Shown: one piece after another, positions 26,270 through 61,242 of the stretch
Position numbering within the stretch: position 1 is the stretch's first letter
How the letters are laid out: every line of letters starts with the position of its first letter
IMG/VR virus record: IMGVR_UViG_3300034116_001288
Location: 1 to 61,242 of that record
Length of the DNA: 61,242 bases
Source of the DNA: a virus
Lineage: Duplodnaviria; Caudoviricetes
Direction: 5' to 3' (one strand)
Notes under the pieces: model-generated
Seen by the model: only the letters and a program-made list of their open reading frames with translations
Told to the model about the DNA's origin: nothing
The model's database searches: none
Made by a program: the position numbers and the translations under genes

Positions 26270-27858
26270 TGGCAACAATCACCCTCACCTCGGAAGAGCA
26301 GACGATCAACCTCGTGACGGAAGGGTCTGTCTCTCTGTCTGCCAGCAATGGCAAGTCTGCGTATCAGTCGTATCGCGACACGACGACTGATAGTCCCATA
26401 CTGACGGAAGCTCAGTGGGTTGCGTCTCTCGACGGACCTGCTGGTGATCCCGGCTCACCGGGACCGGCGGGTGATCCAGGCGAGAAGGGGGACAAAGGTG
26501 ATCCCGGCGACACAGGAGAGCAGGGGGAAACGGGCAAAAGCGCCTACCAATCCTACCTCGATACCACGACTGACGATCCGGTTCTCACGGAAGAAGAATG
26601 GTCTGCTGGCGGAGGAGGTGGGGATTACCTACCGCTGGCTGGCGGAACGATGGATGCCAACGCGACCATCACTTGGGGCAACGCCTCGGCCATCCGCGAA
26701 GCAGGAGCGCAAGGGCTAGAGATCGAGTGCTCGGTCGGCTACCGTTGGCAGTTCGTGGCAGGTCGGATGATCCTGCGCCAAATCAACAGTGGCCAGATCC
26801 AGCGCGTCCTCGCCATCGACGGCGTCACGCCCGGTGATACGGAGGATATCAGCGAGGGTTTTATTGTCGGCACGCGATGGGAAACTCAAGATGGAACCAT
26901 CTATGAATGCACCGACAGCACCGACGGCGCGGCAGTGTGGGTAGACGTTACCCTATCGGGAATTGTTACATCAGGTTCAAGCGCATCATTAAAAGACCTC
27001 GCGCTTAATCCTGACGCCTTGACGGGGAGTCTTGCAACGAGCGCGCTGAATGTAACGCAGACTTGGAATACGACGGGCAATCCGACCTTGCTGAAAGGCT
27101 ACGTCACCAATACCGCAAGCGGATCAGGTGCAAAACTCCTCGACTTAGGGGTTGGCGCGACAACTCGACTGAACCTTGATGCGTCGGGTCATCTTTGCAC
27201 CAACACGGCCGACGATTATGCGTCTTTCGGGTTTATTAATTCGGCGCGGGGGATTGGATACAGTAGCGCAAATGAAAAGATGTTAATGTATGCCAATGCT
27301 TCTGGAATCGTGAACGCAGGGGTTGATTCTAACGGTCTTTTTTTACCTGACGGAGGAAACCTTTCATGGTCTAGTTCCGGCTGGTCTAGCGCCAGTGATC
27401 TCTTTTTATCGCGGGCTGCGGCTGCAACCATCCAGCTAGGAGTAAATCATGCTACGACAGCAATTCGCCAAACGATCAAAGGTTGCAATGCGACCACCGG
27501 AAACGGCGGCGAGCTAGTTCTAAGGGCCGGAACTGGAACTGGAGGCGCAGTCGGAACTCAAGGCGTTTGGCTTGGTGTCCCGTCCGCAAATGCTTTAAAG
27601 CAATACGATTTCAATGGAGCTAACTTAGGCGGGTTTTTCAACGAGTCGCTTCGTGGTAGTCTGCGGTTTGCTGGGGGGTCTGGCGGTGACGTGACACTTA
27701 CAAGCAACTCAAGCAACGGCAACATTGAATTCACTCCCAACGGGACCGGCAGGGTAAAGTTTGGGACTTTTACCACCCTCACGTCTCACACCGCATCGGG
27801 CTACATCGAAATCAAGGATGCAGGAGGAACCACTAGAAGGCTTGCTGTTATTGCCTAA
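26269..27858 (+). CDS. Tail fibre with collagen-like repeats (spans the phage A/B junction)
   Basis: GXY run flanked by two GKSAYQSY.DTTTD.P.LTE..W repeats, YLPLAGGTM, Gly-rich C-terminus. Confidence 0.8.
   Translation: MATITLTSEEQTINLVTEGSVSLSASNGKSAYQSYRDTTTDSPILTEAQWVASLDGPAGDPGSPGPAGDPGEKGDKGDPGDTGEQGETGKSAYQSYLDTTTDDPVLTEEEWSAGGGGGDYLPLAGGTMDANATITWGNASAIREAGAQGLEIECSVGYRWQFVAGRMILRQINSGQIQRVLAIDGVTPGDTEDISEGFIVGTRWETQDGTIYECTDSTDGAAVWVDVTLSGIVTSGSSASLKDLALNPDALTGSLATSALNVTQTWNTTGNPTLLKGYVTNTASGSGAKLLDLGVGATTRLNLDASGHLCTNTADDYASFGFINSARGIGYSSANEKMLMYANASGIVNAGVDSNGLFLPDGGNLSWSSSGWSSASDLFLSRAAAATIQLGVNHATTAIRQTIKGCNATTGNGGELVLRAGTGTGGAVGTQGVWLGVPSANALKQYDFNGANLGGFFNESLRGSLRFAGGSGGDVTLTSNSSNGNIEFTPNGTGRVKFGTFTTLTSHTASGYIEIKDAGGTTRRLAVIA
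26976..27134 (+). repeat. 159-bp direct repeat, copy 1
   Basis: Matches 61084-61242 with one mismatch (A27007 vs G61115). Confidence 0.98.
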
Positions 27859-27862
27859 GTTT

Positions 27863-28117
27863 ATGAATATCTCAATCACCTTCAATACAGAACAAACCGC
27901 AGCTCTTGATGAGCTGCTCGCTAGCCATAACGCGGGCTTGGAAGCTCCGGTTTCGGCGGAAGCTTACCTACAGACTGTCCTGCTTGGAATCATCAACGAC
28001 AAGGTCGAGCGGCAATTTGAAGCGACCGCCAACAATCTAGTCAAAGCATCGAAACAATTGACTTATGAATCAAGAATTGCCCTCATTGCCCAAGTTCAAG
28101 CAGCCATTGAATCCTGA
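27863..28117 (+). CDS. Small protein after the fibre gene (fibre chaperone-like)
   Basis: Position and coupling. Confidence 0.55.
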   Translation: MNISITFNTEQTAALDELLASHNAGLEAPVSAEAYLQTVLLGIINDKVERQFEATANNLVKASKQLTYESRIALIAQVQAAIES

Positions 28118-28283
28118 GATTTCATTGCAACAAGCGGAAGCCATTGCCGAGCTTGATGCCCTATTGCATCCCGCCATCCTGCCGGGATTCCTGCAAACGG
28201 CAAGCCGCGAACAGTGGCGGAAGATCGCCTATTACATGGACGCGCTTAAAGAGCTTCTACCACAAATGCAAAACGGCGAATAA
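28107..28283 (+). CDS. Hypothetical protein
   Basis: Short ORF that fills the gap. Start uncertain. Confidence 0.35.
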   Translation: MNPEISLQQAEAIAELDALLHPAILPGFLQTASREQWRKIAYYMDALKELLPQMQNGE

Positions 28284-28305
28284 CCGTAAATAAGGATTTC
28301 CAATT

Positions 28306-29733
28306 ATGAAACTCTTCTTTGACCTCCGCATTGATCGGCTAGTTGCCGCACCTGGGCAGGATTCTGTCATTACCGGTTTGGCCGGAAAGTCTGGAGACGG
28401 CGCGACTCCGGTTCAGCTCATTTTCGGGCGAAGCTCTGACCCGACAAGCACGACCTCGATTGTCGAAGCGCCAACTTGGACGCCGGAAAACCTGCCTGGT
28501 GGAACTGTGATCAGGATCGGCATCAAGGAGGAGGGCGAATATAGTGACGGCACACTCCTCGCCTCAAACTCAACGTGGACGCATGATGCGGGAACCTACA
28601 CCTACACCGGAACGCTCGACCTTAACACCAACGAGATCGACACGGCACTCAATCGCGACGATGCCAACGCCGGAAACGACGTTGCTAGCCTCGCCTGTAG
28701 TTTTGAGCTGACCTATCAACCCAGCGGATCGGGCGGATGGAGAAGCTCTGTTGAGCCTGTCGAGTTTACCATTTATCACGACATCCTTGTAGGCGATGAG
28801 GCCACGCCAACAAACGCAGGAGACCCGACTCAATACCTTCTCAAGGCAAGCGGCATCGAATGGCTTCCCACGGTAACGAGTCAGACCGGAGGCACTGCTG
28901 CCGATCTGGATGCAATCGCGACGGTGAGCGTGACCGTTGGAAAGGCGGTCATGTTTAAAGATGCGGACACATCAAATCTCATCCGCCTTTACCAACTGAT
29001 TGCAAGCACCGATGCAGAAAGCGCACCAACAACCATCCGCCCAGATGACTATAACGCATCGACCAACGCAAAGGTCTGGCGCAACTTTCCGCTCGATGTG
29101 GCAGTCATTGCTGAACCTGTAAATGGCCTTTCCTCCTCGATTGCCAACGAGGTGGTTTTGTTCAACGGGACCGACGGGAAGCAGCTAAAGCGAGCGACCA
29201 CGACCGGCATTGCAAAACTTACAAGCGGAGTTCTATCTGCGGCCACGGCAGGCACGGACTACGCAACCGGAGGCGCGATTGGCAGCTCAGGGTTGACGAT
29301 GTCAACGGCGCGGCTTTTAGGGCGCACCACGGCCTCAACGGGCGCAGTGGAGCAAATCACCGTTGGCACTGGCTTGACGCTCTCAGGCGGCAATCTCAGC
29401 TCAACGGTGGGGCTTGAGGCGCTTCCTAGTGGAGTCGTAACACTCTCGACCGATACAAGCCTCATCGTCGGCTCCCACGACAAGCAATACATCGAATGCG
29501 GCAGCGGAGTATCGACGGTGACAATTTCCGCGCAGGCCGATACGACGTGGGTTCAAGATAGCCATTTCTGGATTGTAAACCGCAAGTCCTCCGGTTCCGT
29601 TACACTCGCGGAAGGGTCTGGCGTGACATTGATTTCCCACGGAAGCACCACCGGATCGATTTCTTTGGCGCATACCGAAAACCCTATCCATCTTTGGCGC
29701 AGTAATACCAATGAATGGAGGGTCATCTCCTAA
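28306..29733 (+). CDS. Tail fibre / baseplate-attached protein
   Basis: Adaptor-like N-terminus, IRPDDY, LFNGTDGK.LK, ATAGTDY, LLGR.TA.TG.VE.ITVG.GL fibre motifs. Confidence 0.75.
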   Translation: MKLFFDLRIDRLVAAPGQDSVITGLAGKSGDGATPVQLIFGRSSDPTSTTSIVEAPTWTPENLPGGTVIRIGIKEEGEYSDGTLLASNSTWTHDAGTYTYTGTLDLNTNEIDTALNRDDANAGNDVASLACSFELTYQPSGSGGWRSSVEPVEFTIYHDILVGDEATPTNAGDPTQYLLKASGIEWLPTVTSQTGGTAADLDAIATVSVTVGKAVMFKDADTSNLIRLYQLIASTDAESAPTTIRPDDYNASTNAKVWRNFPLDVAVIAEPVNGLSSSIANEVVLFNGTDGKQLKRATTTGIAKLTSGVLSAATAGTDYATGGAIGSSGLTMSTARLLGRTTASTGAVEQITVGTGLTLSGGNLSSTVGLEALPSGVVTLSTDTSLIVGSHDKQYIECGSGVSTVTISAQADTTWVQDSHFWIVNRKSSGSVTLAEGSGVTLISHGSTTGSISLAHTENPIHLWRSNTNEWRVIS

Positions 29734-29735
29734 TC

Positions 29736-30038
29736 ATGAAAGACGCCGCTTTATCGCTCGCCAACGCGCTCAAGGTTAACCCTATTGTGACCGCCGCCAT
29801 CATTCTGCTCGCTGCTTGCTGCGTCACGTCATGGAGAGCGGCCGTTGCCTTTACTAGGCTGAGTCGCGCAGTCGAGCAATCATGGAGTTATAACATGGAA
29901 CGCGAAAGCTGGGACAAGTTCGCAAGGCTGAACGCGCAGATTCAGATTCCCGATGTGGAGAAGATTCGCAAGGAGCATATATCGGCCAGCGAGAAGACAG
30001 ACGACCTTTTTGAATTTTTGGGTCAGGCCGGGAAGTGA
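29736..30038 (+). CDS. Single-TM hypothetical protein
   Basis: IVTAAIILLAACCV hydrophobic segment. Confidence 0.55.
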   Translation: MKDAALSLANALKVNPIVTAAIILLAACCVTSWRAAVAFTRLSRAVEQSWSYNMERESWDKFARLNAQIQIPDVEKIRKEHISASEKTDDLFEFLGQAGK

Positions 30039-30745
30039 GTCGCGATTGACACGGACGCGACTGGGAAACATCCGCCTTGGCCTTGACCTTGACCGCCTCT
30101 GTCGTTGATGCCTAAATACGACGATCCGAGATCGAACATTGGGTATGTGGTAATAAATGGAAACGGTCCAGATGTGTCCACTTTGCTGATTGAAGCACTA
30201 ATAATCGGAGGGTAGCCCAAAACGCTCCAAACATAATCGCCTTCCTGATCTTTTGCCGGAACTGGAATTGGCGCGAAAAGTGAAACGTCAAACTCCCAAT
30301 AGCCGATAAATTCGGTAAAGTTTAAACGTGTTAAATACGTCATTCCCGAAAGCCCGACAGGATTGAAAAATTCCGACTCCTCATCTGGGTCAGTATCTCT
30401 TTGAAAAAGCTTTGCCTGCGTGTCCCATTTATAGTCGAGGTTGAACGTTTGAAGCTCCGTTGCAGTATCGTAGTATTTCCAAATTCCTGATTCACAGACA
30501 ACCGAGTAAGACACATCTTCTGGAAACTCTTCGCCAAATTCAGAGTTGAAAGCGGCGGAGCTAAACTCAAATGAAAAGTTAAACTCCTTCGCCGTCAGCA
30601 GATCACAAACCTTCCCCGGCGGCATTCTCCAATCGCCAGCAACGTTCCATATTGGAGCTTCTGCCGTTGTATCAATTTCAAAAAACGTATCAGGCACGGC
30701 AAACGGCCACGCCATGCGATAGCGATTCTGAAAAGGTGCGATCAT
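30023..30745 (-). CDS. Putative minor tail protein
   Basis: Last gene of the minus-strand TMP operon, aromatic-rich. Confidence 0.6.
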   Translation of the reverse strand: MIAPFQNRYRMAWPFAVPDTFFEIDTTAEAPIWNVAGDWRMPPGKVCDLLTAKEFNFSFEFSSAAFNSEFGEEFPEDVSYSVVCESGIWKYYDTATELQTFNLDYKWDTQAKLFQRDTDPDEESEFFNPVGLSGMTYLTRLNFTEFIGYWEFDVSLFAPIPVPAKDQEGDYVWSVLGYPPIISASISKVDTSGPFPFITTYPMFDLGSSYLGINDRGGQGQGQGGCFPVASVSIATHFPA

Positions 30746-31392
30746 AGGAACGTTGGAACAACGCGCGTCCTGCTTTCATCTGGCACGGTTGTTAGCGTAT
30801 ACGCGAGCGTTGGGTAGGGTCCGATTAGCTTGGTGGCATAAACATTCTCAAGGATTAACAAAGCGTCTCCCGTATTAGGCGGATCGCCCGGCTCAGGAGG
30901 TTCAACGTATTCCACTTTGTGCAGCGGGATTCGTGTAACCTGCCAATCAAACGGATCGGGGCCGAACTCGTAGGCAGAAGGGTAACTTTCCCAATCGGCC
31001 TGAGCTAGGACTTCAATTGTGATAATCGGGTTTAAGAGAAAATCATTAATTGGCCCAACCATCTTGGCGACTACCCATTTATCTTCTGCAAGCTCAAATG
31101 GCTCCATTTCTATTGTGACTTCCCGCGTTACATCTTCCAGTGAATAGGTTACGGAAGGGTTGAGCAAAATCCATTTTTCTGGCTCAATCTTTGATCTTTC
31201 CAAATCCCATCGAAAGGAACTCGTCGCGGTGCTGAAGATGTGCGGCGGTAGCCATCCGTTTTCTGTCTCTGACCATCCCGGTCTGCCACCAGGGTTGACG
31301 CCGTGCTTTTTCGCAGCAGCAACGACGGCATTTAGCGCATTGGCGAAGTTCGTGTTGCCGCTTTTGAATGTTGGGAATGAGTAACTCATCAC
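30742..31392 (-). CDS. Putative minor tail protein
   Basis: ATGA-coupled in the TMP operon. Confidence 0.6.
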   Translation of the reverse strand: MMSYSFPTFKSGNTNFANALNAVVAAAKKHGVNPGGRPGWSETENGWLPPHIFSTATSSFRWDLERSKIEPEKWILLNPSVTYSLEDVTREVTIEMEPFELAEDKWVVAKMVGPINDFLLNPIITIEVLAQADWESYPSAYEFGPDPFDWQVTRIPLHKVEYVEPPEPGDPPNTGDALLILENVYATKLIGPYPTLAYTLTTVPDESRTRVVPTFL

Positions 31393-32015
31393 TCTGCTGC
31401 TTTTGGTTCAACGAGATTTTTCCACGTTTCCGTCACTGCCCAAACAGTCTTTGCCAGACGCACGCGCTGGAATCCTGCAAGCACGCCTTCAAGTTCATAT
31501 TGGCCCGCGATGTCGCCAGTAAAGTTCGGCGGATTCGGTTGTCGAAGCAAACCCACCGGAAGGCTTGTTGGAACCACGCCGGGAAACTTTGGTTTCGTCG
31601 GATATCTCGTTGATCTGCTGATCCATCGCGTTGTCGCAGTCTGGGCAAAATACCGGAAGCTGACGTTTTCTCCTGTTGTGGTGGTGATTGTCACGCTTTC
31701 CTCCGCGATGTCATCAGTTATGTCGATGACGCCTTTGTCCGTATCGGTTGCGTCAAGAAATCCGAGGTAATTAAGAATGACATCGCAAACCGGACCACGC
31801 TCCTGCCACGATACCGTTTGAAGAAACATGTTTTTGTATGTTGAATGAGCCGCGCCGCGCTTCCATTGCGCCAGTTCCGAATTTAGCTGTGCATTTGCGG
31901 TTCCTACAGCGCCGCGACGAGTCACGGTCAATGTGTCAGGGCCGTCGAACCCCTTAGCGGAATCGACTGAAAAATCGCGGAATGACGTTGTTCCTCTAGA
32001 TGCGGCGGTTGGCAT
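31389..32015 (-). CDS. Putative tail tip / hub protein
   Basis: First gene after TMP. Confidence 0.6.
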   Translation of the reverse strand: MPTAASRGTTSFRDFSVDSAKGFDGPDTLTVTRRGAVGTANAQLNSELAQWKRGAAHSTYKNMFLQTVSWQERGPVCDVILNYLGFLDATDTDKGVIDITDDIAEESVTITTTTGENVSFRYFAQTATTRWISRSTRYPTKPKFPGVVPTSLPVGLLRQPNPPNFTGDIAGQYELEGVLAGFQRVRLAKTVWAVTETWKNLVEPKAAE

Positions 32016-32016
32016 G

Positions 32017-33738
32017 TCAATTAACGGTTACGGCGGATTTAATGTTGCTTTCAATGGATTGAAGAGATGCGGCTTGTTGCTCTTGCAGCGAAAGGTTCTT
32101 CTTCGCTTCTTTGTCGTTTGCCGATGTATTGAGGCGTCGCTTTTCCCCAAGTCCACCGGTTGTCATTCCTGACGCGATGCCGAGGCGCTCGCGATCCTTT
32201 GCAAAAACGTTGTCAGTTCCTAGCGGCGCTCCAGCTTCGCCGAATACGCGATTGGATGGGCGAACGGCTTCTCCGAAAAGCCTCCCGTCCCTGCTGCTTC
32301 TCGCTTCCTTCGGTGGACCCATTTGTTCTGGCGCTACCGTTGGCTTGGGTGGTCCGTAGGTTGTGCCGTCGATCTGCGGAACGTTGTAAGAGTCGCGGCG
32401 TTTTTGCTCTGCCTCGTCAGCAGCAACCCGCTTTCTTTGCTCCTCTGCCTCTTTGTCGTAAACGTCTCCTTGCGGCGTTTGTTGTTTTGGAACCTGCGGA
32501 AAGCTTTTTCCAAATGCTTCCGCGAATTTACCAGCGGCGGCTGTCACCGCGCTTGAAGGCGCCCAATCAATTTGGCCAAGCTCTTCTTGCAATTTTGACG
32601 CAAAATCCGGCGCAGCTTTTTCTTCCGGCTTGGCCTCGCCAATAATTCGCGTGGTATCTACCATGTCCACCTCGCCCTTGAGAGCTTTACCGAAGTTTTT
32701 CGCCAACTCGTAAAACGCGCCGCCAATGGCATCAACCCCTGCCACCAAAACATCAATCAAGATGTTTTTCATGAATGAAAGACCTTCCGCCGAAAACAAC
32801 GCTTGAAGCAACGCGCCAAAAACGTCCAGAGCCTTTGCAAACGCGTCTGCAAGGACGGCCACCAAAAGCGGGACAGACGCTGAAATCATCGCAATGACGT
32901 TTTCCATGTTGAACGCGCTGCCGATTCGCAAACCTAGAGCAGCAAAGTCGAAATTGTCGAATTTGGTCAACACCTCATCAACGTCTCCAGCGATTGGCTC
33001 AAGGAATCCAACGAAAAAGCCTTGAAGCTTTTCGGGAATTCGCGCCATCTTGTCGGAGATCGAATCGAACAATCCTGCAGAGCGATCAAGGATTTCGGCC
33101 TGGGTCCCAAGGAAAGCCCCGGCATTGGCAAAAGCTTGGCCATCGGCGAACAACGTCAAAAGCTCGCCGCCAGACTTCCCGAAAATCTGCATCGCAAGCG
33201 CAGCCCTTTGCGCAGGATCTTTAATTGCCGCAATTTTGCTTTGGATCAATTGGAATTGCGCGGCAGGATCGAGTTTTGAAATGTCTTCAAACTTGATGCC
33301 GAGGGCGTCAAAGGGCTTTGCTGCGGTCTTAGATCCGTTGCCAAAATCAGTGATCGTCTTTTGAAGCTTGTTGATTACTCCGCCAATCTTGTCCGCTGAG
33401 ACTCCATTGTCTTCAAATGCTCTTCCCATTATGGCAAGCTGCCCTGCCGCAATTCCAGTTCGCGCAGAAAGGTCCGCCATCTTTCCGCCCAAATCGGCTG
33501 CTCCTTTTAGCCCTGTGGCAAAACCTGCTCCCGCAGCGGCAGCCCCAGCCAATGCAATTGCGGTTGCCGCCTTCCCAGCAGACAGAGCAAGGCCCCCCAT
33601 GGCCTTGGTAGCACCGCCGAGCGATTGCCCAATCTTAGTGCCGGTAGTTGCTGCCAGCCCTCCAGCTCGTCGCATCGTCGCAGCGAACCCCGTCATATCT
33701 GCCGAGATCGTGGTCTTAAGGTCTGCTTTTGCGGCCAT
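32017..33738 (-). CDS. Tape measure protein (phage B)
   Basis: ISADMTGF N-terminus, DLSARTG, FDALGI, RAALAMQIFGKSG.EL. Confidence 0.85.
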   Translation of the reverse strand: MAAKADLKTTISADMTGFAATMRRAGGLAATTGTKIGQSLGGATKAMGGLALSAGKAATAIALAGAAAAGAGFATGLKGAADLGGKMADLSARTGIAAGQLAIMGRAFEDNGVSADKIGGVINKLQKTITDFGNGSKTAAKPFDALGIKFEDISKLDPAAQFQLIQSKIAAIKDPAQRAALAMQIFGKSGGELLTLFADGQAFANAGAFLGTQAEILDRSAGLFDSISDKMARIPEKLQGFFVGFLEPIAGDVDEVLTKFDNFDFAALGLRIGSAFNMENVIAMISASVPLLVAVLADAFAKALDVFGALLQALFSAEGLSFMKNILIDVLVAGVDAIGGAFYELAKNFGKALKGEVDMVDTTRIIGEAKPEEKAAPDFASKLQEELGQIDWAPSSAVTAAAGKFAEAFGKSFPQVPKQQTPQGDVYDKEAEEQRKRVAADEAEQKRRDSYNVPQIDGTTYGPPKPTVAPEQMGPPKEARSSRDGRLFGEAVRPSNRVFGEAGAPLGTDNVFAKDRERLGIASGMTTGGLGEKRRLNTSANDKEAKKNLSLQEQQAASLQSIESNIKSAVTVN

Positions 33739-33810
33739 GGTCAAACCCCTCTACAAAACAAAGGAGATTTTCAACTTGCGTTTTTCGTTCGTTTTGTTGA
33801 GCGGTCCGAC
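33739..33810. promoter_or_regulatory. Back-to-back divergent promoter pair (TTG-N12-GTTTTGT motif)
   Basis: Minus: TTGAAA-N9-GTTTTGTAGAGG, ATG 36 nt on. Plus: TTGCGT-N9-GTTTTGTTGAGC, ATG 35 nt on. Shared CAACTTG core. Confidence 0.7.
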
Positions 33811-33987
33811 ATGGACACGAAACTTCTTCTGGGTCTTCTCCTTCGCCACGGCCTGACCATTGCTGGCGGCTACGCAACCGGGGCTGGCATTGTCTCGCAG
33901 GCCGATCTCCAGACCGGTATCGGTGCAGCGGTCGCGCTTGTAGGGATTGTGATGTCGGCGCTCGAAAAACGTAAAAGGGTAAAATGA
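33811..33987 (+). CDS. Holin (small, two TM)
   Basis: LLRHGLT..GG, two hydrophobic helices, basic tail, overlaps the endolysin start. Confidence 0.7.
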   Translation: MDTKLLLGLLLRHGLTIAGGYATGAGIVSQADLQTGIGAAVALVGIVMSALEKRKRVK

Positions 33988-34688
33988 CCAAAACCGAGAT
34001 CGTCGAAATCCAAACGCGCCTCAAGGCCCATGGCTTTGATCCAGGTGCAATGGATGGAGTTATCGGGCCGAAAACCCGAGCGGCGATCATCGCGTTTAAA
34101 GTCTCCAAGGCGCTTTCCCCTCGCGACTACATTGGGCCGATTACGCTGGCCGAGTTGCGAAAGGAGCTGCAGGCATCGGTCGCGCCTCCGAAGGTAGCGG
34201 GAGAACCAATCTGGCTACGCCGCGCAAGGCAGGAAATCGGCGTTTCCGAGATTGCCGGGAGGCAGCATAGCAAGCGCATCTTGTCCTACTGGCAGCTCGC
34301 AAAGCTATACTTTTCCGACGACGAGACCCCTTGGTGCGCGGGATACGTCAACGCCATGCTCGAGGACTGCGGGATTGCCGGAACTCGCAGCGGCATGGCG
34401 CGAAGCTTTGAAAAATGGGGCCAGCCCTGCGGAGCCATCCCCGGCGCGATTGTTGTTTTCTGGCGCGGCTCAAAATCAAGCGGATCCGGCCACGTTGGAT
34501 TTGTGACCGGCAAGGACCAATACGGGAACATCATGGTTCTAGGCGGCAACCAAGGCGATGCGGTCAACGTCAAGCCTTTCGACACTTCGCGAGTCGTTGG
34601 CTACCGATGGCCGAAGGGCTTCGACATCGGAAGCGATGCGCTCGATACCGTCGCCAGTGACGGCAAAACATCCCAGAACGAAGCATGA
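33984..34688 (+). CDS. Endolysin: PG-binding domain plus TIGR02594/CHAP-like peptidase
   Basis: DGVIGPKT, DDETPWC, GHVGFV, VLGGNQ. Close homolog of 11446-12141. Confidence 0.9.
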   Translation: MTKTEIVEIQTRLKAHGFDPGAMDGVIGPKTRAAIIAFKVSKALSPRDYIGPITLAELRKELQASVAPPKVAGEPIWLRRARQEIGVSEIAGRQHSKRILSYWQLAKLYFSDDETPWCAGYVNAMLEDCGIAGTRSGMARSFEKWGQPCGAIPGAIVVFWRGSKSSGSGHVGFVTGKDQYGNIMVLGGNQGDAVNVKPFDTSRVVGYRWPKGFDIGSDALDTVASDGKTSQNEA

Positions 34689-34809
34689 TCCCATCCGCCA
34701 TCTTCGGTTCGCTTTTGATGATCGCGGCTTTTGTCCTCGTCCTCAAATGCAGCCAAGACGACGACGATGACGATTTTCCCGATTACCCCGGCGGATACCG
34801 CTGACAACC

Positions 34810-51742: not shown

Positions 51743-51745
51743 GCC

Positions 51746-52126: not shown

Positions 52127-52128
52127 GA

Positions 52129-52809: not shown

Positions 52810-52822
52810 CCAAAAAAGAAGC

Positions 52823-53493: not shown

Positions 53494-53495
53494 GT

Positions 53496-54053
53496 ATGGA
53501 CAGAATAACGGCATCGGTAGACGTTCGCGAGTTTATGGCTGCATTGCAGGCATACGAGAAGGAATCGTCGCGAGATTTGAAAACCGTTGTGAAATCAACA
53601 GCAATAGATGTTGCGTTTAAAGCCAATCAGTCAGCAACGGCAGCAAAGAAATCGTCGATTCCCAATCTGAAAACCGGGCTTTTTAACGCGCTGGCAGCAA
53701 AGGCCGGATTTACTCGCGGCAATGGAAACCAAAGGGAGGCCGAACGTCTTTACAATCGCCGCATCTCTGCGATCAAATACAGCAAATCGCTGTTTCTGAA
53801 GATGGCGCAGGATCTTGGCGCAAAGGTCGCATCGCTTCGCAAGAAAATCGAAAACGCAGGAGCCGAGGACAAAGGCACGATTTTGATTCCGGCCATTGAA
53901 CTTACAATTGAAGGCGTTGACATGGACCACGCCAACAAAGTCTTGGCTCCAGCATTGCAGGAGGGCGTCAATAAAAGCGCGGCGAAGATGCGCCAGCGAA
54001 TCGCGGACAAGATCGCCAAACGCGCACAGGCTCATTCGGGAAGAGGAAGGTGA
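53496..54053 (+). CDS. Basic neck / tail completion protein
   Basis: Lys/Arg/Ala-rich, counterpart of 14962-15654. Confidence 0.55.
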   Translation: MDRITASVDVREFMAALQAYEKESSRDLKTVVKSTAIDVAFKANQSATAAKKSSIPNLKTGLFNALAAKAGFTRGNGNQREAERLYNRRISAIKYSKSLFLKMAQDLGAKVASLRKKIENAGAEDKGTILIPAIELTIEGVDMDHANKVLAPALQEGVNKSAAKMRQRIADKIAKRAQAHSGRGR

Positions 54054-54466
54054 TGCAACGCTTCTCAATCAAGGCTCTTTCCTCGATGTTTCGCACCAAC
54101 CGCGAGACAGTGGAAAAACGCGCCTCGCACCTGGGGCTGAAGTTTGAAGAAGGCGACAAGGGAGCGAAGCTTTACGACATCTTTGAAATCGCCCAGCTTC
54201 GTCCTCCACCAGCTCGCAGTGAAGGGGCAATGTCTTTAGAGGAGGCGAGGACGCGAGAGGCTACAGCGCGTGCTGAGGGGCTAGAAATGGACAATGCGCG
54301 AAAGAGGCGGGAGCTTGCCAACGTGGACGAGCTAATGGCCGCGCAAAATGTCCTCTTCGACGAGATCGCCGCAATGATCAAGAAATCGAAAATGACCGAC
54401 GCTGAAAAGGAGGATTGTCTGAGCGTGATTTCATCGGTTCCTCGAAAGTGCTGGGGCGAGCTTTGA
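54050..54466 (+). CDS. terS: Probable terminase small subunit (DUF1441/Nu1-like)
   Basis: FSIKALS..F..NRETV.KR HTH, G.KGAKLY, EARTR...A.AE.LE..NA..R.EL coiled coil. Confidence 0.6.
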   Translation: MMQRFSIKALSSMFRTNRETVEKRASHLGLKFEEGDKGAKLYDIFEIAQLRPPPARSEGAMSLEEARTREATARAEGLEMDNARKRRELANVDELMAAQNVLFDEIAAMIKKSKMTDAEKEDCLSVISSVPRKCWGEL

Positions 54467-54470
54467 AGCG

Positions 54471-54528
54471 AGAAAAAAAGGTTACATTTTTCTCTTGCAT
54501 GGGTGTAACCTTAGGTTACATTGAACCC
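54471..54528 (+). promoter_or_regulatory. sigma70-like promoter with palindromic operator, copy 1
   Basis: TTGCAT-16nt-TACATT. TGTAACC-TTA-GGTTACA at 54504-54520. Leaderless ATG at 54529. Confidence 0.7.
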
Positions 54529-54744
54529 ATGAACAAGAACACCACCGCAATGATCGAAATCAAAGACCCCGCAGACAAAAACAACATTTTGGTTTTTCGC
54601 AAAACGAATCAGCCAGCAGGTCTTCAACCCGTCGGAATTATTCATTGTTTCTGTGCCACCGAATGGGAGGCTATCGGAGCCGCCGGAAATCACATCGGGT
54701 GGTTCATTTCAAAAAAGGAAGCTCTTAAAAGCCTAGTTGCATAA
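54529..54744 (+). CDS. Small hypothetical protein (AT-rich moron)
   Basis: ORF directly behind promoter copy 1. Confidence 0.65.
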   Translation: MNKNTTAMIEIKDPADKNNILVFRKTNQPAGLQPVGIIHCFCATEWEAIGAAGNHIGWFISKKEALKSLVA

Positions 54745-54767
54745 TATTATGCAACTAGTTGCATAAT
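54733..54767. repeat. Nested perfect palindromes (three alternating CTAGTTGCATAAT half-sites)
   Basis: CTAGTTGCATAATATTATGCAACTAG (26 bp) overlapping ATTATGCAACTAGTTGCATAAT (22 bp). Confidence 0.9.
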
Positions 54768-54849
54768 TTCCAGCGAAAAGCCCCGCGCGGCAAGCTTGGC
54801 CCAGACAAGGCTGCGCTTGCCGCTTTTTGGGGTAACGCGCAAAGAAAAG

Positions 54850-54906
54850 AGAAAAAAAGTTACCTTTTTTGTTTGCGCGGGAGTCACTTTATGTTACATT
54901 TAAAAC
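54850..54906 (+). promoter_or_regulatory. sigma70-like promoter/operator, copy 2
   Basis: AGAAAAAAAGTTAC...TTGCGC-16nt-TACATT, leaderless ATG at 54907. Confidence 0.7.
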
Positions 54907-55068
54907 ATGAACAACACCGCAACCGAAGCCAAAGCAAAAATCAAAGCAATCCTTGAAGCCAAGTTTTTGGATTTGGTCAAACAAGGAATGGATCCAAAAG
55001 CCGCCTTTGCTGACGTGATGGGAGCTTTTGAAAAACAATTCCCGGGCCTCGTCGAAAAACTTGCGTGA
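54907..55068 (+). CDS. 53-aa helical protein (not in the ORF track)
   Basis: MNNTATEAKAKIKAILEAKFLDLVKQGMDPKAAFADVMGAFEKQFPGLVEKLA*. Confidence 0.7.
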   Translation: MNNTATEAKAKIKAILEAKFLDLVKQGMDPKAAFADVMGAFEKQFPGLVEKLA

Positions 55069-55078
55069 TTCGCAAAGC

Positions 55079-55285
55079 ATGACCGCCCCCGAATACAAAA
55101 CCCTCCGCGAAAAGCTCGCCCTTACTCAGGGCGGGCTTGCCTCGCGTTTAGGCGTGACGCGTAAAACCATCAACGCTCGCGAAACCGGAGCCGTTCGCAT
55201 CAGCGAAGAGGCTGCGCTGGCCCTTGAGTCGCTGGTCTTTATGGAGCCGAAACCGGCATCGGAACCTGCTTGCCAATCGTCGTAG
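55079..55285 (+). CDS. XRE/Cro-family HTH regulator
   Basis: MT..EYK.LRE.L.LTQ..LA..LGV...TI.ARE.G. Confidence 0.85.
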   Translation: MTAPEYKTLREKLALTQGGLASRLGVTRKTINARETGAVRISEEAALALESLVFMEPKPASEPACQSS

Positions 55286-56684
55286 GAAGCCCTGCCGCCT
55301 CAAGCTTGGCGTTGTCGGCCTCGTTCTCGGCAATGATTTTGTCGATGTTCAAGCCGCGATCCTTGGCCGCGCGTTCGCGAGAGTTGAGTGAGAGGGCGAT
55401 TTCTCGCTCGATGGCCTCGATGTCGCCAACTGGATCAACCCAAGTCCAAGTCCTGCCAGAGAACTCGACATGGGAAAGACGGTCAAAGTCGAGGAGGCTA
55501 TAGCCTTCAATCCTGCCCATCAAGAGCGCCATTCGTAGCCAACGCTCGAAAAGCGGAATCTCAAAAGTGTCGATGAACCACGAATGGAGAATCTTGTAAA
55601 TGTCGCGCTCTGAAAGTACGCCCTGCCTAATGCTAGAGTAAGAAACGCCCTCCAAGTCTTGCGCCCATGTGTTGTAATTGACGTAGATGCCGGGGCTGAC
55701 TCCGCGCAGAATGGCCTTGCGGAAATCAGGCATCGCGCTATTCGGATGCGCCGGATCAATCATTTGGGCCTCGACGCCGTGGGGCAACGTCTCAAACGTG
55801 CCTGGTGCGGAAGGCGCAATGGCCTTGCCGTCATCGTCCTCGTCGCCAGTGTATTGGGCCTCGCCCGTCTGCTTGAAAAAGCCTAGCTTGTTGGCGCTGA
55901 TACGGGCGGCAATTACCTCGGCCTCTTCAAACTTGGCAAGATGACGAAGGCGAAGTAGGGCGTTGGCCAGCCACGAATAGCCTTGGCTCTGGTTGATTCG
56001 ACGCGCCAAGAATGTGTGGATCATGTTGTCACCAGGCACTGCGAATGTTTCGCGCGTATACCTGCCGCTCTTAGGATCCATTTTCCTAAGGTGGTATTTG
56101 ATCGGCTCGTCCCACTCGTCAAACTCCACGCCCATGTAGATGCGAGCGGCATCGTTTCGGTGATGCGGATCGAGCGCGTCGATCTCGATGCCCTGCGCAG
56201 CAAAGCGGAAATCGTTTTTCGGAAAGCCCTCGATGGTGCGGGTCAAAAAGCCGCCATCGCGAACCGCAGACCGCAAGGCGAGACGCTCAAAAGCAGCGCG
56301 TGAAAACTGGCGCGTGACATCGAAATTGCCACGCCGGGAGAAATCCTCCCAAGCCTCCTCAACCTTCGCTCTCGCGTTGTTGTCGGCGCTATTGGACAAG
56401 CCTTTTTTGCTTCTCGCATCTGCTCGACGGGCAAGCGATTTCATGCGGATACCATGCTGGCCGATGACGTTGGATTCCAAAGCCATTAACGCGCCCTCGA
56501 TGTAGCCGTCATTCCGCTCAGAATCCCGCGCACGGTCGCGCAGTGACTTGGCATCCTGCTTGATCGCGTTATCCGCTGGGCCTGTTCCTGCGACCCAATC
56601 GTTCGTGTATCGAGTCCCCTTGGCCGCGTCAAAATTGCGAGCGCGGATGGGCTTGTTGTTGGGCCCGTAGAGAAGAGGTTTCAT
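55239..56684 (-). CDS. Portal protein, lambda family (phage B)
   Basis: LRDRARD..RND, NVIG, RDGG, MGVEFD, SYSSIR, WVDP. Confidence 0.93.
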   Translation of the reverse strand: MKPLLYGPNNKPIRARNFDAAKGTRYTNDWVAGTGPADNAIKQDAKSLRDRARDSERNDGYIEGALMALESNVIGQHGIRMKSLARRADARSKKGLSNSADNNARAKVEEAWEDFSRRGNFDVTRQFSRAAFERLALRSAVRDGGFLTRTIEGFPKNDFRFAAQGIEIDALDPHHRNDAARIYMGVEFDEWDEPIKYHLRKMDPKSGRYTRETFAVPGDNMIHTFLARRINQSQGYSWLANALLRLRHLAKFEEAEVIAARISANKLGFFKQTGEAQYTGDEDDDGKAIAPSAPGTFETLPHGVEAQMIDPAHPNSAMPDFRKAILRGVSPGIYVNYNTWAQDLEGVSYSSIRQGVLSERDIYKILHSWFIDTFEIPLFERWLRMALLMGRIEGYSLLDFDRLSHVEFSGRTWTWVDPVGDIEAIEREIALSLNSRERAAKDRGLNIDKIIAENEADNAKLEAAGLPTTIGKQVPMPVSAP

Positions 56685-57217
56685 TCAAATCTGGAGTAAA
56701 TGGTTCGACCGTTGGAAAGGCCAGCGTCTGCGCGAGCCTTGGCGATCTCGGTGTCGAGGTCGCGACGGTATTTGGTCAAAAGCTCGCGAGCGTCCATCAA
56801 GGAGATTTTCGTAATCGGCACGCCGCCGACCGTGTAGGTCTCAAGCCCTCGGCCTTCGTCATCGCTGATTCGGCCCTCAAGGTGCGCTTCCAAAGCCCTG
56901 ACCATTTTCCGCGCATGACTCGGCAGCGGAGCGCGATCCGGCGGGGCTTGTAGCGTGATATTGCCAATGGACTCAACCGACCGAATCCCGGCCACCTCAA
57001 GCGTCAAGGCAACAACGTAGATTCCTGCCGGCAGGTTTGCCGTCTTTTCGGGCGGATAGGTAGCGGTTGCCGTCGTGTCCGATACGGACAGCGCAACGGT
57101 GACAACCTCGCCGGAATCAATGCTGCGAAAATGAGCCGATCCTGTAGCGCCTGACGTTACAGTTGCCGTAAATTCGATGGATTCGCCGCAGAATGCACGG
57201 GAGGGTAAAGCTGCCAT
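56681..57217 (-). CDS. Head-tail adaptor (gpW-like C-terminus)
   Basis: SHARK...LEA.LEGR, YTVGG..I.K, ATGA overlap with the portal. Confidence 0.7.
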   Translation of the reverse strand: MAALPSRAFCGESIEFTATVTSGATGSAHFRSIDSGEVVTVALSVSDTTATATYPPEKTANLPAGIYVVALTLEVAGIRSVESIGNITLQAPPDRAPLPSHARKMVRALEAHLEGRISDDEGRGLETYTVGGVPITKISLMDARELLTKYRRDLDTEIAKARADAGLSNGRTIYSRFE

Positions 57218-57251
57218 GTCGATGCCTCCACAAAACAAAGCCCAATTTCAA
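57218..57251 (-). promoter_or_regulatory. Motif promoter
   Basis: TTGAAA-N9-GTTTTGTGGAGGCATCGAC-ATG. Confidence 0.65.
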
Positions 57252-57261
57252 GGGCTTTTCG

Positions 57262-59145
57262 TTAATCGGCTACGAAATCAAGAGTATATTCGCGCTCTTT
57301 ACCTCTATCTGGCACGTTTTTGGCCGCATATTCGGCGTATTTCTTGGCAATCGTGGCAAAAGCAATGTCGAGCTTTTTCGCGGCAGCAATATTGTAGACG
57401 CGAACGTCGAGCGGTTCGTTTCGGTCGCGCTTGTCCTTCTTGTCGAAGAACTCGTAGAAGCTGCCGTCTTGTCCTTTTTTCAGCGTCACCTTCTCGATCA
57501 AGAGGCGCTGGAAATATTCCGGCGTATAACCATGGCCGCTAGGGAAATGCATGTAATTATGCGGATAGATGGAAGATTTGCGATCTTGGCGCAGGGCCGC
57601 GTTCTGATAAATCATCGACTTGCATTCGTGCGTGCCGATCTCAAAGAACGTTCCGCGCTTTTCCCGTTTCGGCTGTGAGACGATTGGCTTGCCAAGCACG
57701 GTCGAGCCGAAGATGGCGAAGACTCCGCGAGCTTGTCGGACCTTCGTGAAGGCCAGCACCTGGGCCTGCCGGTATTTCGAGTCGATAAAGACGGAGGCAG
57801 CTCGCAGCACCTTGCCGCACGGGTGCAGGAATTCGGTCTGAAGCAGCGCATCGAGCTTCTGCCACACTTCCGGCTCCATCGTGCCGCCGCTCAAAATGTG
57901 ATACCCCAGCCCCCACGTTTGACCGTTCGCACCGTGACCGACAAATTCAAACTCCAAACGGTCGCCTTGAACGTCGCAACCTCCGGTGACAACCAGCACG
58001 CCGGCGGGAATCGTGAACTGGTTTTCAGTCACGCGCTCGAGGTAGTCGTAAGCCTCCTGAGCAAGGCCAACGGGATCGGGCATCTCTTCCTCGGGCGCCT
58101 GGTAGGTTTCAGCGTCGAAGGTGTTAATTAGCACGCGCTTCGCCTTTTCGCGATTGTCTGCCGCCTCAATTTTCAACTCCTCGACCGCAGCCCAGTGCAG
58201 ATGACTCGCAAAGCCCTTTTGGGGAGGATGCGGCGACATCATCCGCGAACCGTGGAAACCTGCGATGCCGTTGAATGGACGCGTGGCCTGCCATCGACCA
58301 TTGCGAATCATCTCCATCCGCTCCGCATCGGAGATCCGACACTCGCTCTCGGGGCATTCAATCCATGCATCCTCGGGCTTGTCGCGGTCATATTTCAATT
58401 GGCGGCGATGCAGAACAAATTCCTTTGAGCAATGCGGACAAGGCGCGATCCAGACTCGCCAATCGCTCTGGAGCATCAGCGCCTCGATCTTGCTTTTGCC
58501 CTTAACGGATGGGTAGCTCGCGGCAATCTTGATTGTGTCCGAATATTCAGAACCTCGGACCCAGAAGATCTCGAGCGGGTCACCTTCGTCGCTCTCGGTC
58601 GATTCGATGGCGTCGATCTCGTCCGCGAAAAGGAAGTTGCCCTTTGCCCTCCGCATCTCACCTGGAGCGTTTGACCCGAAGGCATTCACAAGGCCACCGG
58701 GGAAGAGCTTGTGCAAAATCGTGTTCCCGCTTTTGCGCCGGCCAGAATCGTCTCCGATGAGCGAGGCCAGATCGGGCGTCGGATTGACCAGCTCGCCCAT
58801 GAGCGTTTCTTTTGACCATTTCTCGGTCTGGCTAATCGTTGGATACATGACCAGCACGCGGCGAGGCGCTTCGGCGATGCTGTGGCCGATCTGGTTCATG
58901 ACGACTTCAGTCTTTCCCATGCGCGAGGCGAGCATGTAAACCGTCATCTGGACGCGAGGATCGTAGGGCGCTTCCATCATTTCTCGCTGATACGGGGCGA
59001 AATCGAACCGAAAGCGCCTCCCGCCTTCCATGCGTCGGACCTTCTCAGACCATTCCGGCGCGGTCATGGTGCGCTGAAAACGGAACGCACGCTCTAAGTG
59101 CCTGAGAGTTCCCCGGTAATACCGATCAAGAGCCGCCTCATTCAT
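57262..59145 (-). CDS. terL: Terminase large subunit, lambda GpA family (phage B)
   Basis: APYQREMM, SRMGKT, LFADEID, EGDP, PCPHC, GCDVQ.DRLE, IDS, RNEPLD..VY. Confidence 0.95.
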   Translation of the reverse strand: MNEAALDRYYRGTLRHLERAFRFQRTMTAPEWSEKVRRMEGGRRFRFDFAPYQREMMEAPYDPRVQMTVYMLASRMGKTEVVMNQIGHSIAEAPRRVLVMYPTISQTEKWSKETLMGELVNPTPDLASLIGDDSGRRKSGNTILHKLFPGGLVNAFGSNAPGEMRRAKGNFLFADEIDAIESTESDEGDPLEIFWVRGSEYSDTIKIAASYPSVKGKSKIEALMLQSDWRVWIAPCPHCSKEFVLHRRQLKYDRDKPEDAWIECPESECRISDAERMEMIRNGRWQATRPFNGIAGFHGSRMMSPHPPQKGFASHLHWAAVEELKIEAADNREKAKRVLINTFDAETYQAPEEEMPDPVGLAQEAYDYLERVTENQFTIPAGVLVVTGGCDVQGDRLEFEFVGHGANGQTWGLGYHILSGGTMEPEVWQKLDALLQTEFLHPCGKVLRAASVFIDSKYRQAQVLAFTKVRQARGVFAIFGSTVLGKPIVSQPKREKRGTFFEIGTHECKSMIYQNAALRQDRKSSIYPHNYMHFPSGHGYTPEYFQRLLIEKVTLKKGQDGSFYEFFDKKDKRDRNEPLDVRVYNIAAAKKLDIAFATIAKKYAEYAAKNVPDRGKEREYTLDFVAD

Positions 59146-59157
59146 GTTTAAAACCCA

Positions 59158-60129
59158 TCAAACAGGTTGACCGTGGCTCAACAATACCGGAGCCAACGTC
59201 ACCAGTTGCGAAAATTGCGTTTCTGTTCCCCGGGAGAAGGTCAAGACTGCCGCTGTTGGGAGCGCCACGCTAGCCGCGTCGAGCAATCGCAGCACCTTGG
59301 AAGTGTCGAGCGTCATCGTTACGCCGATGGGGCCAATAAAGGTCTCGGAAACGGTGATCGCCGGGTTCACTCCCACGGCAGTTCGCTTGACCTCGATCTT
59401 GATTGTCTCTCCGGTCGCATCTCTCGCTACCAAAAACTCTCCCGGCTCGATGTCCTCCAGCGCCGTCTCGATTTGATACGTTGAAACATCCGCCGAAAGC
59501 CACATCGTGCCGGTATCGGTCGCGGTCCTGATCTGGAACTTTCCAGCATCCGGCATCCTAGAAATGGTTATGCGGTCATTCTGCGCAACGCTCACGCTAC
59601 CGGTCGCGATGTTTGCAACCGTCACGGCAGCCTCGCTAATGTTGGACGCGCTTGTCACCGCCACAAGCGTCTGAAGGGTTAAATCAATCTCGACCGTCTC
59701 TACGTTGGAAGCCCCGCCAGCGATCAGCGTGAGGGCGCGATTCGTCATCGTTCCAAAGGCGGAATGGGCAATTGCGAAGTCTGCTCTCGCTCCGTTGCTG
59801 CGGAAAGTGACGGTAAAAAGGCCATCTTTTCCCGTCACATCGACACCACCAGCGGAAACGATGGCAGAAAGGCGATTGAGCGCGAGACCCAGCAAATGCG
59901 CGTCAATCCCGGCAGCGGGAAGCTCGACGGTGGACGCGCCCCAGGTGATCGACCAATCGCCAGAGGCAATCGGAACTGCTTTTTCGAGCGCAAGAGACAA
60001 GCTCAACGTATCACTACTGGAAATCTCCAAATGATCCGCAATCAGCTCGACGCTGAGACTGTCACCGGGGCGAATCGCATCAGGCAATCCCCGCACCTGT
60101 CCCTTGTCGTCATAGCGCAATTTGAGCAT
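59158..60129 (-). CDS. Putative baseplate / tail structural protein
   Basis: Resembles the N-terminal half of 20271-22943 by eye. Start reassigned to MLKLRY from the promoter motif. Confidence 0.6.
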   Translation of the reverse strand: MLKLRYDDKGQVRGLPDAIRPGDSLSVELIADHLEISSSDTLSLSLALEKAVPIASGDWSITWGASTVELPAAGIDAHLLGLALNRLSAIVSAGGVDVTGKDGLFTVTFRSNGARADFAIAHSAFGTMTNRALTLIAGGASNVETVEIDLTLQTLVAVTSASNISEAAVTVANIATGSVSVAQNDRITISRMPDAGKFQIRTATDTGTMWLSADVSTYQIETALEDIEPGEFLVARDATGETIKIEVKRTAVGVNPAITVSETFIGPIGVTMTLDTSKVLRLLDAASVALPTAAVLTFSRGTETQFSQLVTLAPVLLSHGQPV

Positions 60130-60199
60130 GTCGGACGCCTCGACAAAACGCCGCGCAAAATCAAGTTGAAAATCCCCGTTGTTTTGTGGAGGCATCGAC
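60130..60199. promoter_or_regulatory. Back-to-back divergent motif promoter pair
   Basis: Minus: TTGATT-N9-GTTTTGTCGAGG, ATG 35 nt on. Plus: TTGAAA-N9-GTTTTGTGGAGG, ATG 34 nt on. Shared CAAGTTG core. Confidence 0.7.
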
Positions 60200-61242
60200 A
60201 TGCCCGACTCTCCCGTCATCTCTGGCGTTGCCGATCTGCCTAAATTCTATTTCGCGGAGGGCGCACCGTTCCGATTGAGCCTGACCATCGGCGCGGAATT
60301 TTCGATGACGGGAAAATTCGTCACCTTCGGAATGCGTGCGCGATCCGGCACGGTCAGACGGGTTTTCGGGACGGATTCCGGCGAGTCGAATCTAACCATC
60401 GCGGGGCAGGTGATTACGTTCAACGTTGCGACAACCGACGCGACTGTCCCGGCCTTTGCTTCGGGCTGGACGTTGGAAGATGTCCAAGCCAAGGGCGAAA
60501 CAGAATATTGGGTGGACATCTCCGCGACCGAAGGCAGTGACGTTCTGTTGCGCCTACAAGGCCAAGCCGATTGGGTGGCACCTGGATCTGACATCGCTGA
60601 ATCTTCCGCTGTTGTCGCCTCGCCAGCCATTGATGTAAACATCACCAGCGGTGCGGTATCGGCATCGGTTGCAGTTATCGGAGGCGGCGGCGATTTGTTC
60701 GGGCCAGCCAGCGCGACCGACAATGCGATTGCCCGATATGACCTAACAACAGGGAAGCAAATTCAAAATTCTGGCATCACCATAGCGGACGGCGCTTCCG
60801 GCACACTAGCGGGTAGCAATTCCGGCGACGTTACGCTAGCAGGAACGCCCGACTATCTGACCATCGCCAATCAAGTCATCACGCGCAGCAACGTCAATTT
60901 GGCATCGCATGTTACCGGCACGCTTCCAGTTGCTAACGGCGGCACTGGGCAGACCGCTTTAAGCTCAATCGACGCCGCCGATTTTGGTTCGGGAGCCGCA
61001 GTGGATAATTACATTTTGGCAGCCGACGGTTCAAGTGGCGCCGCTTGGGAGTCGCCAGCCGCGTTAGGTATTGTCGCCACAAATTCAAGCGCATCATTAA
61101 AAGACCTCGCGCTTGATCCTGACGCCTTGACGGGGAGTCTTGCAACGAGCGCGCTGAATGTAACGCAGACTTGGAATACGACGGGCAATCCGACCTTGCT
61201 GAAAGGCTACGTCACCAATACCGCAAGCGGATCAGGTGCAAA
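60200..61242 (+). CDS. Tail fibre of phage B, 5' part (continues in frame at 27135-27858 on the circle, 588 aa total)
   Basis: Open to the window end. GPASATDNAIARYD, G.NSGDVTL and VTGTLPVANGGTG motifs, then SSASLKDLALDPD shared with the other fibre. Confidence 0.85.
   Translation, partial: MPDSPVISGVADLPKFYFAEGAPFRLSLTIGAEFSMTGKFVTFGMRARSGTVRRVFGTDSGESNLTIAGQVITFNVATTDATVPAFASGWTLEDVQAKGETEYWVDISATEGSDVLLRLQGQADWVAPGSDIAESSAVVASPAIDVNITSGAVSASVAVIGGGGDLFGPASATDNAIARYDLTTGKQIQNSGITIADGASGTLAGSNSGDVTLAGTPDYLTIANQVITRSNVNLASHVTGTLPVANGGTGQTALSSIDAADFGSGAAVDNYILAADGSSGAAWESPAALGIVATNSSASLKDLALDPDALTGSLATSALNVTQTWNTTGNPTLLKGYVTNTASGSGA
61084..61242 (+). repeat. 159-bp direct repeat, copy 2
   Basis: The last 127 bp (61116-61242) are identical to 27008-27134. 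Confidence 0.98.

Follow-up and report, generated by a model that had tools for sequence, protein, structure and literature searches.

A virus record that probably joins part of one phage to the whole of an unrelated one at a shared tail-fibre cassette

Gene content and repeat structure of the record

The IMG/VR virus record IMGVR_UViG_3300034116_001288, analysed here over its whole length of 61,242 bp and referred to as the window, is classed as linear with a CheckV completeness of 71. It holds a partial phage genome, phage A (1–26975), and a second genome, phage B (27008–61115), and the two meet within a tail-fibre gene. With an estimated probability of about 0.8, the record represents an assembly lasso laid over ordinary mosaicism of fibre genes, that is, a part of phage A and a complete, unrelated phage B filed as one although they are two viruses.

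The junction is marked by a direct repeat. At an offset of 34,108, window 26976–27134 recurs at 61084–61242, where the second copy of the shared tract is truncated by the contig end. The two copies, both on the plus strand, form a repeat of 159 bp with one mismatch (A at 27007, G at 61115), which changes N to D in the fibre. The final 127 bases of the window (61116–61242) are an exact copy of 27008–27134 and the 128-base suffix has no second copy in the window, while identity of the two copies falls away upstream of 26976 and 61084. On re-comparison, the description of this repeat in the original prediction, which was made from the sequence alone (159 bp, one mismatch, 127 exact terminal bases), proved accurate. 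A chance origin of such a repeat within 61 kb is impossible. The open reading frames (ORFs) starting at ATG 26269 and ATG 60200 pass through the repeat in matching frame, and the in-frame entry of two fibre N-termini into shared sequence, which had been noticed earlier, was upheld. The further claim that both run into the same C-terminal module was not, as the window itself shows the two N-termini in common sequence for 53 codons only; the sequence past 27134 is present once, and a shared C-terminal module is hence not an observation from the window. In a de Bruijn graph of word length k = 127, window 27008–27134 is a branching vertex. The largest k of SPAdes is 127, and circular contigs carry an end overlap of length k. 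For the window contig neither the assembler nor the k used is documented, and 127 enters here as the SPAdes maximum.

Gene scans covered 93 ORFs with PHROGs and 73 ORFs with Pfam. The PHROGs scan returned two sets of virion genes and bore out the expectation that the core structural genes are duplicated. Phage A is represented by its structural half only, entirely on the plus strand: terS (1884–2699), terL (2593–4671), portal (5993–7516), protease (8153–9532), major head protein (9604–10497), a lysin with PG_binding and CHAP domains (11428–12141), the tape measure (15670–17496) and tail proteins up to 26269. The tail block closes with the N-terminal 236 codons of the predicted fibre (26269–26975), which contain collagen-like Gly-X-Y repeats and match PHROG tail-fibre families at an E value of about 1e-7. 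Phage B forms a complete circle (34,108 bp), as judged from PHROGs, Pfam and collinearity with a relative described below, and arranges its genes in four blocks of alternating strand. The fibre (N-terminal 347 codons at 60200–61242, plus strand) shares a plus-strand block with an ORF of 475 amino acids (28306–29733) without assigned function and an ORF of 107 amino acids. The predicted fibre would run on at 27135–27858 to a total of about 588 amino acids. A minus-strand tail block with the tape measure (32017–33744) follows. The plus strand then encodes a lysin (PG_binding_1 and CHAP, 33984–34688), RecT (38711–39508), an exonuclease (39933–40574), the primase/helicase (43957–45735) and a head protein-protease fusion (48287–50341), and this long block also contains two methyltransferases, an HNH protein, small head-tail proteins and a terS-like ORF. 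The portal (55239–56684), a head-tail joining protein, an ORF of 353 amino acids and terL (57262–59145) form the last block on the minus strand.

The G+C content is 0.590 in phage A and 0.548 in phage B. Their terL proteins share 21% identity over 135 amino acids, the portals share 21%, and the tape measures did not match. The lysins (11428–12141 and 33984–34688) are 69% identical as proteins and 66% identical over 586 bp of DNA. Phages A and B are therefore unrelated in core genes and G+C content, the lysin excepted. The shared lysin is a hint that A and B infect a common host in which peptidoglycan is accessible as a target. Cultured phages matched terL of phage B with at most 33% and terL of phage A with at most 26% identity, and none matched the fibre module.

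Phage B as a stand-alone genome

IMG/VR contains 47 loci with the terL of phage B; they derive from many metagenomes, mostly show 98–99% amino acid identity and lie in records whose lengths cluster at 34.5–35.5 kb. The relative G002 (34,514 bp, loci L069 and L070) belongs to the class of records with direct terminal repeats, of which 123 bp were found, and is collinear with window 27008–61115 as a circular permutation. Its positions 282–17804, 19892–21067 and 25171–34374 correspond to window 42314–60681, 28306–29385 and 33588–42281, respectively, and divergence is confined to the fibre cassette and the tail block. Three contigs from three other metagenomes (L003, L004 and L005) run unbroken from 59128–61242, at 92% identity, across the junction at 26976. 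Beyond it they cover 26976–27892 (L003, 98.4%), 26976–29083 (L004, 95.9%) and 26976–27166 (L005, 100%). Because they bridge the junction, the closure of the phage B circle is independently confirmed. DNA of phage A occurred in none of the 47 loci, the only cross-match being to the lysin that they themselves encode. Phage B exists as an autonomous genome.

In phage B, the segment 55239–60219 with the genes for portal, joining protein and terL (minus strand) lies opposite in strand to the head protein-protease fusion and the connector genes (48287–54744, plus strand) and is oriented divergently from the fibre gene. As the odd four-block layout is kept in the terminal-repeat record, it is natural and does not stem from misassembly. 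CheckV assigns this record a completeness of 40 in spite of its terminal repeats and its 34.5 kb. An interpretation of the 71% of the window as the sign of an 86-kb genome was rejected on this ground; the value is uninformative on a larger genome, and CheckV completeness misleads for the whole group of B phages.

Two prophages in tandem in one bacterial chromosome, with a contig that ends at the repeat, would give the equal depth of A and B that is expected of a single host chromosome. We consider this arrangement highly improbable. The relative of phage B circularises; the scanned ORFs (93 with PHROGs, 73 with Pfam) included no integrase, attachment site, host flank or host gene, and a scan of the window for transfer RNAs (tRNAs) found none. 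A search with the fibre in 185,579 species genomes yielded 58 loci, all of which matched the collagen repeat only.

The fibre cassette in assembly graphs and in its protein family

Eight lake-water runs (X1–X8), which may include the source sample, contain all sampled words of window 22000–26975. Four runs, possibly not independent of each other, were placed on 19000–36000 as Logan contigs, for which mean depths are given. In all four, phage A formed a contig of 26,864 bp (window 142–27005) with depths of 17.4, 18.5, 22.8 and 24.6, and a loose end ahead of 26976 spelled the N-terminal sequence of the phage B fibre. The first copy of the tract shared by A and B (26976–27180, plus strand, 205 bp with a single nucleotide polymorphism at 27007) opens the distal fibre module (SSASLKDLAL...) and formed a contig of its own. 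Its depths of 31.6, 43.2, 36.5 and 38.1 compare with sums of A and B of 37.7, 39.1, 45.3 and 50.7, and the graph branched at both of its ends in all four runs. Further contig breaks were located at 27151–27180, 27259–27288, 27333–27362, 27914–27943 and 28275–28304. Depth was that of a single phage over 27151–27288 (19.3, 21.1, 28.8 and 16.1) and 27333–27943 (16.9, 18.9, 13.5 and 23.1), amounted to 28.3, 28.8, 26.2 and 37 over 27914–28304, and was 20.3, 20.6, 22.5 and 26.1 in the backbone of phage B from 28275 on. In all four runs the graph continued behind 28304 into a loose end, 255 nucleotides or longer, that does not resemble the window. Around position 27,000, where the original prediction had placed the junction, the Logan contigs are accordingly at about summed depth only within 26976–27180 and at single depth in the flanks. 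They thus show two entries at 26976 and a further branching after 27180; the window's 27181–27943 is carried by one genome only.

The allele retained at 27007 was G in the three runs in which B exceeded A (X1, X2 and X7) and A in the run in which A exceeded B (X3); it was thus that of the commoner phage in each of the four. In X3, a separate haplotype of 27914–28304 with 11 differences was recovered.

A query with the module (residues 237–529 of the window ORF 26269–27858) retrieved 15 proteins, with 10 clusters at 72–100% identity and total lengths of 337–630 amino acids. At least five different N-termini meet the module, all at one point (SSASLK or its equivalent), and the distal segment exists in two allelic types that are freely combined with the N-termini. 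Protein P0003 (588 amino acids) consists of the N-terminus of phage B and the window's module. Protein P0007 (532 amino acids; six members on three contigs, the longest of 60,294 bp) agrees fully with the window's phage A ORF in residues 1–304, differs first at residue 305 (nucleotide 27181) and carries 58 differences beyond residue 304. Its point of divergence coincides with the branch point in the Logan graph at nucleotide 27181. The 60,294-bp contig could be the full genome of phage A or another lasso. In G009, a 23.5-kb record of a third, otherwise unrelated phage, the cassette is present at 77–79% nucleotide identity, and the match to the phage A copy starts at 26976. Since G009 reaches only 66–82% identity over 26976–27180, the identity of A and B there exceeds mere conservation. 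The module boundary at 26976 is genuine and has been used more than once.

The remainder of the distal module (27181–28305, plus strand), in all likelihood the copy of phage B, includes the stop codon at 27858 and two small ORFs (27863–28117 and 28065–28283). Among B phages the variable cassette is bounded on the left at 60681, with homology ending at 60675–60686 in 24 of the 47 loci; the cassette of the window is carried by 3 of the 47. Its right edge (28304–28306, plus strand) is also the second graph branch, one base before ATG 28306, and homology restarts at 28306 in all five long B relatives. Phage B of the window and L004 are 98.3% identical in the cassette and about 92% in its flanks. 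The module family has no counterpart in Pfam, PHROGs, PDB or the ESM Atlas; the best ESM Atlas scores of 0.88–0.90 are treated as leads only.

A very recent swap of the whole receptor-binding module with a breakpoint near 26976 had been proposed from the window. The boundary stood up, being real and reused as seen in G009 and the set of N-termini. The idea that A and B recently exchanged the module as a whole did not, because the graph branches after 27180, 27181–27943 is at single depth and P0007 diverges at 27181. Near-identity of A and B is demonstrated for about 205 bp and possibly extends to 27914–28304 as well. As for the place where phage A leaves the shared segment, the identical tract ends at 27180 according to both the Logan contigs and P0007, and the onward sequence of A was not found in the collections searched. 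Position 28304 had been considered as the end of DNA shared by A and B and was dropped, as the fibre proteins place the end of the identical tract at 27180. Phage A may leave the cassette at 28304.

A probable lasso assembly, fibre mosaicism and the rival readings

De Bruijn assemblers of metagenomes produce repeat-induced chimeric or 'lasso' contigs. The window resembles them in its 127-base end match with a differing prior base, in a loop that comprises a whole genome and in a shared tract longer than k. It differs from circular contigs in that the overlap is end-to-internal and not end-to-end, which accounts for the linear class of the record in IMG/VR. A terminal exact match of the size of k bounded by a differing base occurs both in the window and in a second record, G004; the loop exists as a stand-alone genome (G002, and L003, L004 and L005); and depth in the shared tract is raised to 31.6–43.2 versus 17.4–24.6 for A and 20.3–26.1 for B. 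The exact shared tract spans at least 27008–27134 in the window and extends up to 27180 in the Logan contigs. The chimeric contig that the original prediction had favoured, part of phage A plus the full 34,108-bp circle of phage B, is thus supported by the terminal-repeat relative, the bridged junction, the unrelatedness of A and B and the signature in G004. Benchmarks of chimeric viral contigs have also been published (PMC3901335, PMC5610896).

G004 (loci L071, L072 and L073; 51,710 bp) derives from another metagenome and is filed in IMG/VR as one virus with a completeness of 60. Its first 127 bases are repeated exactly at 42237–42363 and base 128 differs; the repeat lies inside a fibre gene (41290–43548, minus strand). 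The loop of 42,236 bp (G+C content 0.63–0.67) encodes terL, portal, protease, tape measure, ParB, primase, holin and endolysin and is weakly A-like, with 38% amino acid identity in the protease and 33% in one tail protein. The added 9.3 kb (G+C content 0.56–0.59) is 74–78% identical in nucleotides to window 60684–51322. G004 is a complete 42.2-kb phage joined to a 9.3-kb B-like fragment. Two records with a signature of the size of k at fibre genes point to the assembler as the cause, and also show that the sharing of identical fibre DNA between these two phage lineages is a repeated event.

A sequence of events may be outlined as follows. Two unrelated lake-water phages would co-occur in the sample, with homologous distal fibre cassettes that both start at codon 26976 and are near-identical over about 205 bp (26976–27180, with the one polymorphism) and probably again over 27914–28304. 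An exact shared stretch of more than 127 bases would merge A and B in a graph with k = 127. Diverged DNA lying between the near-identical tracts may in addition have been treated as strain bulges and collapsed, so that the ambiguous region would exceed the insert size. The contig would then lead from phage A through the merged stretch once round phage B and stop at the 127-mer vertex already used. The shared tracts themselves would have arisen by recombination between phages of one host, in which the distal fibre cassette is exchanged modularly at fixed boundaries, and the RecT/exonuclease pair of phage B is, by analogy only, a plausible agent. Given the common lysin type and the module, A and B probably share a host.

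Several observations weigh against the reading of the record as two viruses joined by assembly. The A:B depth ratios of 0.86, 0.90, 1.01 and 0.94 are also expected of one molecule; contigs and not reads were compared, and no molecule-level link was seen either way; and the continuation of phage A was found in no collection searched. Proteins P0004 and P0005 join an A-like N-terminal domain to the window-type (type I) module naturally, the depth of 27333–27943 is slightly nearer to A than to B in three of the four runs and to neither in X3, and the assembler chose the link from A to the module although read pairs can span 205 bp. As to the continuation, a 30-nucleotide word from the loose end behind 28304 was unmatched in IMG/VR, the metagenome contigs, the window and 79 loci. 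A 35-mer from the module end had no match in metagenome contigs, and in IMG/VR only the contig of L004 and G009 contained it. IMG/VR also returned no relative of a 498-amino-acid tail protein of phage A and no A-type contig in the search with P0007.

The depth ratio leads to the rival in which A-left, B and A-right form one replicon, homologous recombination in the fibre tract having placed the whole of phage B in the fibre gene of phage A. Such a co-integrate predicts a ratio of about 1:1, as in the four runs, an approximately doubled shared tract and a distal module at single depth; phage B encodes RecT and an exonuclease, and G004 likewise couples a B-like phage and another one at the fibre gene. 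Near-equal depth makes a lasso-type misassembly more likely too. Contrary to a co-integrate, phage B is autonomous elsewhere (the terminal-repeat record and 47 loci without A), and both composite records show exactly 127 identical end bases, the signature of an assembler. The A:B ratio moreover shifts from 0.86 to 1.01 with the 27007 allele tracking it in all four runs, and the combined size of A and B would be well above the likely packaging size of either genome. We therefore deem a co-integrate unlikely for this record, and equally doubtful the more general proposition that B-type phages insert at 1:1 into the fibre genes of A-type phages as phage-in-phage co-integrates recurring across lakes, as in the window and G004.

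Within the preferred reading of an assembly lasso, the owner of 27181–27913 has to be assigned. A single module copy cannot serve both N-termini at the observed depth, so that the contig is chimeric between 26976 and 28304 under either assignment. The stretch rather likely belongs to phage B, in which case the ORF 26269–27858 (529 amino acids) is a hybrid, probably an artefact and not a real protein. Three B-type contigs contain this stretch, with identities of 98.4% (L003) and 95.9% (L004), and divergence of L003 is even over the B cassette (98.5% identity at 60681–61083 and 98.0% at 27181–27892). Protein P0007 offers a different module partner for the N-terminus of A, and the true fibre of phage A would resemble it. 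In the reverse assignment, phage A carries the whole module of the window, the ORF is genuine, the swap very recent and the misjoin situated in 27914–28304. The depth of 27333–27943, the link picked by the assembler and the combination seen in P0004 and P0005, all given above, speak for it. It is nonetheless improbable, if somewhat less so than the co-integrate: the module is held at 98–100% identity by B-type contigs of three other metagenomes and is as diverged there as the neighbouring B-specific part, six members on three contigs tie the exact N-terminus of A to the other module, and the module search returned no protein identical to the 529-amino-acid ORF.

Distal parts of tail fibres are exchanged horizontally among unrelated phages, such as P2, Mu, P1 and the T-even phages with gp37/gp38. 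Haggard-Ljungquist in 1992 and Tetart in 1998 are said to have described such exchange of distal tail-fibre parts. As in these fibres, N-terminal anchors that are unrelated to each other here lead in frame, across a sharp boundary, into one homologous distal module, and the module occurs with at least five N-termini and in the otherwise unrelated genomes A, B and G009. Unlike theirs, the present module is unmatched in Pfam, PHROGs, PDB and cultured phages, no recognisable invertase or chaperone family is present, and the cassette takes in two small ORFs downstream of the fibre and stops a single base short of the following gene. Phage recombinases of the Rad52/RecT type are reported to drive relaxed homologous recombination (PMC3945230). 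Phage B is comparable in encoding a RecT-like protein and an exonuclease, and the mosaic joints lie at short identity tracts in diverged homologues; in contrast to that case, a role of its enzymes in the joints would be conjecture.

For users of such collections the window and G004 carry a warning on data quality, as each is filed as a single virus and consists of a whole phage and a piece of another. The completeness of 71% was assigned to about 1.5 genomes and masks the chimerism of the window. Inferences on host range, gene content or taxonomy drawn from either record would be wrong. Two unrelated freshwater phage lineages repeatedly share DNA of the fibre cassette at the fixed boundaries 60681, 26976 and 28305, and the shared cassette together with the 69% identical lysin fits a common host and an ordinary modular exchange of host-recognition parts.

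The left part of the window has few relatives. G006 (17,704 bp) is 96% identical to window 1318–18396 and the sole close relative of phage A found; two further records are related at about 67% identity, and none of the three extends to the fibre. The left contig end consists of a tandem array of the heptamer GACGCTC (3–168, 23.7 copies by repeat scan), followed by a G-rich tract (171–217). G006 (L074) likewise contains a heptamer array at 11–174, with the unit CTGTCGC, and was the only record to match a 35-mer adjoining the array of the window. Both A-type records open inside a heptamer array of at least 23 copies, which is followed by a G-rich tract and then by conserved sequence; the array is situated about 1.7 kb upstream of terS, and the Logan contig of phage A stops inside it, at window 142. 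Dismissal of array and G-run as sequencing junk was rejected on account of the counterpart in G006, whose different unit indicates a fast-evolving real feature. The array may function as a repeat at a packaging site, a genome end or an origin.

Two further observations concern phage B. Residues 1–51 of its 475-amino-acid ORF (window 28306–28458), directly downstream of the cassette, are 67% identical to G004 39913–40065, in a gene at the matching place of the unrelated loop phage. Another exchangeable tail protein may have its conserved anchor here, which would be the second of this kind. At 43442–43543, inside an ORF of 313 amino acids immediately upstream of the primase/helicase, an 11-mer in 3.8 copies and the hexamer AAGCAG in 8.3 copies form tandem repeats, a candidate replication origin.

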